From Amphiscolops sp. MND2022 (Eukaryota), in NCBI GenBank assembly GCA_964187785.1, contig OZ076409.1, forward strand, positions 59,274,001-59,338,000: a stretch of 64,000 nt of DNA, read 5' to 3'. Both the position numbers and the translations under genes were made by a program. The number at the start of each line of letters is the position of its first letter. Within the stretch, counting starts at the first letter, position 1. Positions 50,853-52,125 of this stretch are shown here, piece after piece. The notes under the pieces were generated by a model. The model was not told where the DNA came from. It was given only the letters and a program-made list of their open reading frames with translations, and ran no database searches.

Positions 50853-51001
50853 GCTCAACAGAGTGGCGAAGCTTCTTCCAGTTTCTACACTGGGAAAGAC
50901 AACTACACCCAATTCAACAAGCCCAAGGAGAAAGTGACAGGGGTGAAAGCCGCCCTCAAGGGCCCTGTCAGGGCTCCCGATTTCCTGCGATCCACAACTA
51001 G
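50853..51001 (+). CDS. RNF113A: RNF113A/Cwc24 exon 3 (not in the ORF track)
   Basis: AQQSGEASSSFYTGKDNYTQFNKPKEKVTGVKAALKGPVRAPDFLRSTT(R) matches the conserved 'Y.G..NY...KGP.RAP..LR.T.R'. Acceptor tgctttAG; donor reads GAATGT. Confidence 0.9.
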
Positions 51002-51319
51002 GAATGTTTGAAATATTATCACTAAATTTTACCAAGCTCGGTTAGCGCTATCTATAGAAACCTCGAAAAATCATTGATTGCGTCATTGGAGCCGTGTTGA
51101 AAATGAGAAGTTGTTTAGCTGTGGGATTGGTCATTATAGACTATTCTATCTTGTTTTGCTTCAAATTGGTTCGGCTTCACTACTCATCACCCTTGTCATA
51201 CGGGTACATCCAAGTTTTCGTCGCCAGCGGCTTACAGATAGATGTTGACTTCAATTTTATGACAGTGATTTGCTTTATCAATTCTAAACGGGAAAAAACT
51301 TCCATGAGGAAAAATTTTG

Positions 51320-51770
51320 CTACAATTATGTAGAAACGTTTTTGATCAAATTCAAGAAAAAGATTGATGAACTATCTAGAAAAGTTTTCACTCCTTTCGG
51401 AAAATCAATACGGATTCAGGAAAAAGAAAAATTCTATCCAAGCAGCAACATCGCTAATAAAAAAATAGAAGAAAATTGGGAATCCAAAGCCAAAACAAAC
51501 TGCATTTTTGTCGACTTCAGGAAAGCATTTGACTCAGTTGATCATAATATCTTGTTAGAAAAGTTGTACCATATTGGTATTAGAGGGATTTCTCATAAGC
51601 TCTGGGAAAATTATCTGGCAAATAGATTTCAGTATGTTAAAATTGAAAATGAATGTTCGAAAATGAGATCAGTAGAACGTGGAGTGCCACAGGGATCTAT
51701 TCTTGGTCCACTTTTGTTTCTGGTATATATTAATGACCTTGGTGCAGATGATGAAATGGCCGTTCGTACT
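51320..51770 (+). mobile_element. LINE RT fragment in RNF113A intron 3
   Basis: 'NQYGFR', 'IFVDFRKAFDSVDHNILLEKL', 'GVPQGSILGPLLFLVYINDL'. Confidence 0.9.
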
Positions 51771-51982
51771 AAAATCTTTTTGATGTTATGTCAAATGTGA
51801 GTCAGCTCATATTGACGCGAGCGCATGCAAATAAAAATGAGATTGTCCTATATTCGAAGTTCTCAGAGCATCCTAGCAAGGGCGGCATGTGAATAAAATT
51901 GATAAACATTTGATGCAAATATGTCAGATAGTGTTCTGCTTTTGGTAACTGACATTCCTGGTAAAGTTTTACTAACCCACAG

Positions 51983-52125
51983 ATGGGACTATGCCCCTGA
52001 TATCTGCAAAGACTACAAAGAGACGGGGTTCTGTGGGTTCGGCGACTCGTGTAAGTTTCTGCACGACCGCTCAGACTACAAGTTCGGCTGGCAGCTTGAG
52101 AACGAGTACATTGAACAGCATAAAG
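51983..52125 (+). CDS. RNF113A: RNF113A/Cwc24 exon 4 (CCCH zinc finger)
   Basis: [39 protein letters not shown]. Branch point ACTAAC plus cacAG acceptor; donor GTCAGC. Confidence 0.95.

Follow-up and report, generated by a model that had tools for sequence, protein, structure and literature searches.

A GA-AG intron in the RNF113A gene of the acoel Amphiscolops sp. and its probable origin, with other GG/GA introns, from hAT-type transposon ends

Results

The RNF113A gene and its third intron

The stretch of DNA analyzed here, referred to as the window (64,000 nucleotides; G000:C1:59274001-59338000), contains an RNF113A gene on the forward strand, which we modeled with five exons. Positions without a contig name are those of the window, and ^ marks a splice junction.

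39158..39381, + strand, exon 1 (coding), donor GTTAGT
48785..48983, + strand, exon 2
50853..51001, + strand, exon 3, ending in TAG, the last base of a Thr codon plus the AG of a split Arg codon
51002..51982, + strand, intron 3, 981 nt, GA-AG, phase 2
51983..52125, + strand, exon 4, CCCH zinc finger (PF00642, E 2e-10)
53065..53381, + strand, exon 5, RING finger and stop

The model gives a complete protein that aligns end to end with protein P0004 of Symsagittifera roscoffensis, the species that also holds the closest named homolog when exon 5 is the query (77% identity, 82% of the query). As in other RNF113A proteins, a CCCH finger is followed by a RING finger, and LRxTxRWDY lies ahead of the first finger. 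Exon 4 is 86% identical to its marsupial ortholog, with the finger motif unchanged, and a genome search with this exon returned a single match and no second RNF113A copy.

Intron 3 reads ...ACA ACT AG (51001) ^ GAATGT (51002) ... TACTAACCCACAG (51982) ^ A TGG GAC (51983), that is, AG^GAATGT...CACAG^A. The residue pattern at this junction is present in 118 of 120 RNF113A homologs, and R-x-[TS]-x-R-W ends all 31 of the 31 motif variants. None of the GT donors between 50900 and 51011 shares its phase with a candidate acceptor, of which four were considered. The six in-phase GC options for exon 3 (50921, 50962, 50987) each remove or replace the RxTxR stretch, and alternative GT or GC donors combined with upstream acceptors all break the conserved motif. 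A weak GC near 50986, which an earlier note on this DNA had named as a possible donor, is thereby rejected, the GC at 50987 being one of those that destroy RxTxR. Judged from the sequence, the predicted GA-AG intron at 51002-51982 is the only join that preserves the invariant RxTxRW motif of this single-copy gene. We consider the intron very likely to be real, which confirms the central claim of the earlier note that the conserved motif is restored by joining 51001 to 51983. That note had also counted four other introns, all GT-AG; the five-exon model has three others, all of them GT-AG.

Elsewhere in the window, exon 1 of the gene has two in-phase donors, GTTAGT (39382) and GTGAGT (39406), 24 nt apart. 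The region 20698-25155 (+) holds a single open frame of 1,486 codons with matches to WD40 beta-propellers, which is unusually long and unbroken for such an intron-rich genome. Judged by their motifs, the segments at 5886-10393 (-), 44184-46313, and 1806-2541 (-) appear to hold disrupted frames of LTR-retrotransposon type, LINE-like pieces, and a fragment resembling a transposase; for the last (1806-2541), Pfam returned no match to hAT.

Inverted donor copy close to the 3' end of intron 3

Intron 3 and the adjacent exon end contain the following features.

50991..50998, + strand, predicted first copy of an 8-bp target site
50999..51008, + strand, TAG^GAATGTT, putative 5' end relic of a hAT-type terminal repeat, supplying the GA donor (compare the Ac/Ds repeat in PMC3260210)
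51029..51036, + strand, second, inner arm TTACCAAG, predicted to pair with 51941-51948 and lengthening the imperfect inverted repeat
51359..51751, + strand, young LINE reverse-transcriptase fragment (39 other copies at 94-96% among the 40 scored)
51949-51953, + strand, second candidate branch point, CTGAC, overlapping the inverted donor copy
51951..51962, + strand, 3' inverted donor copy GACATTCCTGGT, the 8-nt repeat ending 22 nt before the acceptor
51970..51976, + strand, candidate branch point TACTAAC with A at -8, its function predicted from sequence

The inverted copy GACATTCCTGGT can form 8 Watson-Crick pairs with 51000-51007, or 12 pairs over 50997-51008 when G-U pairs are counted. Within it, ACATTCCT at 51952-51959 is fully complementary to 51000-51007, the A at +2 included, and folding of the intron predicts pairing between the two arms. 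The patterns [CT]AGG[GA]ATG and CAT[CT]CCT[AG] together occur three times in the 64-kb window, and two of these occurrences are the ends of intron 3. This inverted copy, which the earlier note had missed, is the feature that would explain the origin of the intron, as set out later.

GG and GA donors in dynein genes

Dynein heavy-chain genes were located with PF12774, yielding 1.32 Mb that covers parts of 17 of the 18 gene clusters. Junctions were assigned with homolog-built profiles, every donor dinucleotide being combined with AG acceptors and scored by protein fit alone. For 479 of 502 junction pairs, a GT (456) or GC (23) donor lay within 4 bits of the best solution. The other 23 comprise eight AG^GG or AG^GA junctions with clean peptides, two odd ones (AG^CT and AG^AT), and 13 in poorly conserved stretches. 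Seven of the eight AG^G[GA] donors scored top or tied for top and one came second by 1.9 bits, while the best GT/GC alternative at these junctions was 5.8 to 27 bits worse, or absent.

G000:C1:36777111, GG donor GGATGG
G000:C11:1708291, GG donor GGATGA
G000:C11:6178764, GA donor GAAAGG, the only one of the nine GA/GG introns without an inverted copy
G000:C11:6175952, GG donor GGATGT
G000:C11:6171212, GG donor GGATGA
G000:C11:6167176, GA donor GAATGC
G000:C12:22469691, GG donor GGATGA
G000:C11:41554934, GG donor GGATGT

The frequency of GG/GA donors in the dyneins is thus 8/487, or 1.6% (0.8-3.2%), an interval that is optimistic because four of the eight lie in one gene. Together with RNF113A, all nine introns have AG at the exon end, G at +1, A at +3, and an AG acceptor, as in the class known from Eurytemora, and GG outnumbers GA (6 of 9). 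The motif G[GA]ATG is found in seven of the eight dynein donors, and AG^G.ATG in only 10 of 426 canonical donors. These junctions, and further ones from the pattern search described later, support the earlier suggestion that the lineage tolerates GA donors and extend it to GG. Positions +3 to +6 of intron 3 (ATGT) had been read in the same note as part of a GTATGT consensus, which is not the consensus of this genome. Among 313 GT donors of the dynein survey, GTTAGT, GTGAGT, and GTAAGT are commonest, T occupies +4 in 11%, and GTATG occurs 9 times; hence, G[GA]ATG is not a damaged consensus.

Several other features of the dynein genes were recorded. GC donors account for approximately 4-5% of junctions (23/479; 13/326 at high confidence), and 293 of 355 intron positions were found in a single paralog, suggesting extensive intron turnover. 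The two odd junctions, AG^CTACATG (G000:C7:65116615) and AG^ATAAGG (G000:C12:32562100), could be either errors of assembly or additional unusual donors. Four GC donors with the sequence AG^GCACGCAT (G000:C11:1736140, 1730246, 1689178, and C11:6176735) probably represent a second transposon-derived intron family; in three of the four, a CATTG(G/C)A-type inverted copy is found close to the 3' end. Tandemly repeated exons, which could be mutually exclusive exons or assembly duplications, occur on G000:C3 at 26.09 Mb (two exons twice), C1 at 49.71 Mb, and C2 at 30.16 Mb (one exon twice each).

The 3' motif in GG/GA introns and in the genome

A CAT[CT]CC[CT]-like inverted donor copy ends 11-22 nt ahead of the acceptor in RNF113A and seven of the dynein introns. 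Allowing one mismatch, CATCCCT lies at -35..-8 in 8 of 9 GA/GG introns as compared with 7 of 426 high-confidence canonical introns (Fisher p 2e-12); an exact match was seen in 1 of the 426. In the eight introns, the terminal repeats are roughly 8-11 nt long, their first 8 positions containing 0-2 mismatches, and the distance from repeat end to acceptor is exactly 11 nt in four, the others having 13, 14, 16, and 22 nt (22 being RNF113A). Beyond the short repeat, no end similarity was found among the nine introns, BLAST matches being internal only. The end-to-end similarity across many introns by which introners are recognized is therefore lacking in this class, and the RNF113A intron is, on its predicted history, like an introner relic rather than a member of a young introner family.

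A genome-wide search with the 3' motif gave 157 matches versus 92 for a control pattern. Approximately 25 of the 100 matches listed belong to one unrelated repeat, and with this family set aside the excess is weak. An upstream NAG^G[GA]ATG was present at 8 of 30 loci (within 1.5 kb) and at 9 of 20 (within 6 kb). Open frames of at least 55 aa flank the putative intron on both sides at 6 of 50 loci, with Pfam support for two of three tested, and upstream CAG^GGATG donors join the reading frames at loci found by the 3' motif alone. At locus L356, the two joined exons match positions 3-111 and 118-174 of the MFS_1 profile. At L352, the downstream exon has an EF-hand, and the start of the protein is presumably neuronal-calcium-sensor-like. 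At L363 (G000:C2:16813120-16816139), removal of a CAG^GGATGT element with the 11-nt spacing would join two frames that look transposase-like.

As a rough estimate, the genome may contain a few hundred GG/GA introns, about 0.2-0.4% if there are near 100,000 introns, assuming that 10-25% of the 157 matches are real (from 50 loci judged) and that the pattern catches about one-tenth of the class. The pattern search thus implies fewer such introns than the dynein survey.

hAT elements and relics of target-site duplications

Ac/Ds elements are described in PMC3260210 as ending in C/TAGGGATGAAA with an 8-bp duplication, (C/T)AGGGATGAAA plus the duplication defining their ends. One dynein intron contains a 1,491-bp element whose ends read CAGGGATGG...CCATCCCTG and whose 8-bp duplication is perfect. 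For the family of this element, 40 of 172 candidates were scored, yielding 91 matches. Among 30 loci examined, we identified 16 distinct copies with perfect terminal repeats, and the duplications of these young copies match at 8/8 positions in 14 and at 7/8 in two, T being preferred at target position 2. Other elements in the DNA examined also have (C/T)AG ends and 8-bp duplications, one of them starting with TAGGAACTT. Transposase domains of hAT type are abundant in the genome, with matches to the dimerization domain at each of the 150 places scored. None of the eight places inspected (seven hAT loci and the transposase-like piece of the window; five of them with 1.5 kb flanks only) linked a transposase to CAGGGATG ends. 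Likewise, no other genome copy of the intron 3 flanks and no source family of the intron were found by flank searches, and a search with the whole intron returned only the LINE piece.

In RNF113A itself, a second target copy is unrecognizable (1/8 matches directly after the repeat, 2/8 at -11..-4). When exon positions -11..-4 were compared with intron positions -11..-4 over the dynein and RNF113A set, 24 of 64 matched (p 0.016 versus canonical introns; 0.067 by permutation). Inclusion of five introns found by the pattern search raised this to 40 of 104 (permutation mean 27, p 0.002); these are five of the six open-frame loci, L363 being left out because its frame looked transposon-like. The -11..-4 stretch contains 30% T in GA/GG introns versus 57% in canonical introns. 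In the repeat, only 3 of 56 bases differ at positions 2-8, while the target copy has decayed to the 24/64 matches just given; the right end is thus far better preserved and probably under selection. It was probably kept either as a branch point plus pyrimidine tract or as a partner of the donor.

We regard it as likely that the GG/GA introns, intron 3 of RNF113A included, are old insertions of Ac/Ds-like hAT elements that are predicted to be spliced from GG or GA. An element with ends (C/T)AGGGATG...CATCCCT(G/A) would insert in an exon just ahead of a natural NAG and duplicate 8 bp. The leftmost three bases of the element would stay exonic and substitute for the natural NAG, giving the donor NAG^GGATG, and the natural NAG, 8+3 = 11 nt behind the right end of the element, would serve as acceptor, so that the length of the mRNA would remain unchanged. 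GA donors could stem from mutation of G to A at +2, or could have come with elements that have NAGGAA ends. The element interior and the target copy would decay afterward and the right end would be retained. We infer this insertion history, the splicing at GG/GA sites, and the reason for right-end retention alike.

Occurrence of the introns in relatives and paralogs

Orthologous sequences bear on the age of intron 3. The close homologs P0001-P0003 start in intron-2-like sequence and run unbroken through exons 3-5. In L236, a cDNA-like contig from a relative, the exon 3/4 junction reads ACT AGA TGG. The homologs P0001-P0003, insofar as they are unspliced gene calls, suggest that relatives lack the intron. 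In the dyneins, five of the eight GA/GG positions also hold a canonical intron in a paralog; the corresponding figure for canonical introns after CAG is 47 of 125 (p 0.26). This sharing counts against hAT insertion, since new insertions might share less.

Possible recognition of the introns

The NAG^GGATG donor lacks only U+2; exon AG, G+1, A+3, and G+5 are retained. By the pairing rules, U+4 of this donor fits the U6 ACAGA box. The introns are not of the U12 type, which has the donor RTATCC and the branch site TCCTTAAC: their donors read G[GA]ATG, and no TTAAC follows pyrimidines. The human structure shows RNF113A stacking on G+1 through Phe213 and Phe219 (PMC5835773).

Inspection for variant snRNAs, as raised in the earlier note, left U6 canonical (ACAGAGA in all eight full-length copies listed) and gave a less clear-cut result for U1. 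No U1 with U at position 7 was seen among the 21 copies over the cut-off (42 of 17,560 candidates scored), and a sequence pattern for such a U1 found none. One degenerate U1-like single copy (L012:940-1103, G000:C12:24891569; 36 bits, starting AATCATTCCAG) shows apparent compensatory changes in two stems and could pair in one register with G[GA]ATG donors; we give this ambiguous copy little weight because it has no close sister and aligns equally well in a register without the match.

Among other U1 loci (L002-L013, L163-L170), changed 5' ends were observed, namely ATACTAACC (three copies), ATTCTTACC (one), ATACTTACTTG (one), and ATACTTACCTTG (six), and copies with ATACTAACC would pair with the very common GTTAGT donors. 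Three U1 copies share one upstream flank and have different bodies. U6 genes occur in closely spaced inverted pairs (G000:C3:315168-315440 and 318772-319044).

The ends of the RNF113A intron differ together at +2. Their duplex is predicted at -17.1 kcal/mol, a level reached by 3 of 426 canonical introns (mean -6.7), whereas donor-U1 pairing is predicted at -2.9 kcal/mol versus a canonical mean of -7.0. In canonical introns, the longest perfect inverted-repeat helix is 7 bp in 3 of 426, with no excess over shuffled pairs. On folding of six repeat-bearing introns, the pairing probability was 0.94-1.0 in four, and 0.15 and 0.0 in the other two. One GA intron has a +2 mismatch between its arms, and one has no repeat. 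These cases, together with the two introns of low pairing probability, argue against a strict need for end pairing.

The simplest reading is a major spliceosome tolerant at +2, which would match the frequent GC donors. It is conceivable, though we lean against it, that the transposon ends have been domesticated as a guide in cis, the 3' repeat pairing functionally with the GG/GA donor. Such pairing would bring the donor beside the branch point and acceptor, and it would replace the weak U1 pairing and the missing pyrimidine tract. If this were true, an animal whose spliceosome is otherwise ordinary would possess a class of introns assisted by a hairpin.

Discussion

Other histories could produce some of these features. 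Old canonical introns might have been converted, a hAT element having inserted 11 nt upstream of the acceptor already present and the original 5' part of the intron having later been lost, so that the element end became the donor. The 11-nt spacing is predicted here too, and five of eight positions are common to canonical introns in paralogs, but that excess is not significant (p 0.26). Conversion would also require two rare events per intron, the RNF113A intron is seemingly absent in relatives, and the 8 nt before the acceptor resemble their own exon above chance and are T-poor, unlike an old pyrimidine tract; we consider such a conversion improbable. Alternatively, the requirement at +2 may simply be relaxed as in Eurytemora, the inverted copy serving as a signal for the branch point or as a pyrimidine signal, or having arisen in place as a pairing element, with no transposon involved. 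The frequent GC donors (23/479), the GA donor without an inverted copy, the location of the A of CAT near -18, where branch points normally lie, and the dependence of the Eurytemora GA/GG donors on exon AG and A+3 (PMC5714493) all fit. This account leaves unexplained why the ends match those of Ac/Ds, why young elements share these ends, why the spacing has a mode at 11 nt, and why a relic duplication exists; moreover, G[GA]ATG is found in 1 of 36 Eurytemora donors (PMC5714493, File S1) versus 8 of 9 here. We consider this account highly improbable.

Two further explanations concern RNF113A alone. Base 51003 could have been misassembled, or it could represent an uncommon allele of a normal GT donor, and the two odd junctions of the survey (AG^CTACATG and AG^ATAAGG) do show unexplained donors at a rate of about 2/502. 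However, the 3' copy carries T opposite 51003, complementary to A, the two-ended pattern is repeated in seven other introns, and AG^G.ATG and the 3' motif are found in just 10 and 7 of 426 canonical introns, respectively, which makes an error at the GA very unlikely. The earlier note had proposed that the weak donor is kept as an autoregulatory sensor, the level of RNF113A or the stringency of 5' splice-site selection tuning retention of intron 3. The intron directly precedes the finger exon, read-through meets a stop at 51009 so that retention would yield a truncated product, and Cwc24 affects 5' splice-site choice (PMC6821175). Nevertheless, the same donor class occurs in unrelated genes (dynein, an EF-hand gene, an MFS transporter), the finger stacks on G+1, which is unchanged in GA/GG donors (PMC5835773), and intron 3 seems lineage-specific. 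With such donors at an estimated 0.2-1.6% of introns, chance alone should place one in a few splicing genes. Autoregulation can coexist with a transposon origin; as an explanation of the donor it is unsupported, and we hold it to be highly improbable.

If the GG/GA introns are old hAT insertions, their donor is an Ac/Ds-like end, and the 8-bp duplication and NAG geometry would make insertion silent once G+1 is accepted without U+2. This would constitute a concrete route to new introns in essential genes from a DNA transposon family that is among the commonest in animals. Should the 3' repeat be needed for splicing, transposon ends would have been turned into a splicing signal, which can be tested with minigenes. 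Gene models from standard annotation would be broken in this lineage, including that of a core splicing factor present as a single copy.

Introners of hAT type have been reported, and so have GA/GG donors; a link between the two, or a case of it in acoels, was not found in the literature searched. In a search that covered subscription literature thinly and included the accessible text of the S. roscoffensis genome paper (PMC9911081) and a Hofstenia preprint, no report of GG/GA donors in acoels was found. Nor was any report found, in the texts covered, of such donors arising from hAT ends.

GA/GG donors after exon AG have been described in the copepod Eurytemora affinis (Robertson 2017, PMC5714493), and GA-AG introns, according to the accessible text, in Oikopleura dioica (Frey and Pucker 2020, PMC7072748). 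As far as these texts go, the introns share with those studied here an obligate exon AG, A+3, the use of both GA and GG, a requirement for full-length protein, a canonical U1 in the genome, and an apparently recent origin. In Eurytemora, GA far outnumbers GG (31 to 5), +4 and +5 vary, and G[GA]ATG occurs once in 36, whereas here GG leads (6/9) and the motif is fixed. The available portions of the two papers (PMC5714493, PMC7072748) leave origin and recognition open and report no 3' partner, whereas an inverted partner is present here; an inverted donor near the acceptor is thus a direct test for the copepod and tunicate introns.

Introners, among them families classified as hAT, were described by Gozashti 2022 (bioRxiv 10.1101/2022.06.06.494994) and Gozashti 2025 (PMC12130899, supplementary file 8), and their terminal repeats and target duplications are also covered in a review (PMC11282704), PMC3443670, and PMC13326754. 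There, as in our proposal, DNA transposons with terminal repeats and target duplications turn into introns, with splice sites derived partly from the element and partly from the duplication or exon. The hAT introners (places 1-32 of 63 seen) are from plants, fungi, and a tunicate, with donors mostly GT/GC or unclassed, and 12 of the 14 supplementary files of PMC12130899 contain no acoel genus name. Unlike introner families, the copies here are old, share no interior, and have the GG/GA donor within the terminal repeat.

Maize Ac/Ds elements are reportedly spliced as introns (Giroux 1994 and Dennis 1988, cited in PMC3443670 and PMC3260210). Those cases are said to be mutant alleles whose GT donors lie in the duplication, inside the element, or close to it. 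The terminal repeat C/TAGGGATG, the 8-bp duplication, and removal from RNA (predicted here) are common to both. In contrast, many fixed introns of essential genes are involved here, with the predicted GG/GA donor inside the repeat.

Non-canonical introns derived from MITEs in Fritillaria borealis and Amoebophrya, and euglenid introns closed by a hairpin, for which end pairing is described, form a further point of comparison (PMC11282704, PMC13326754). They resemble the present introns, whose transposon origin is likely, in such an origin, in inverted repeats at the ends, and in non-GT donors. However, they form the majority class where they occur, their ends are AG-AC/AG-AT or variable, and U2AF, U1, or m6A is altered, whereas the introns described here form a minority class that keeps G+1 and the AG acceptor in a genome with canonical U6 and mostly canonical U1, and their 3' repeat lies 11 nt inside the intron.
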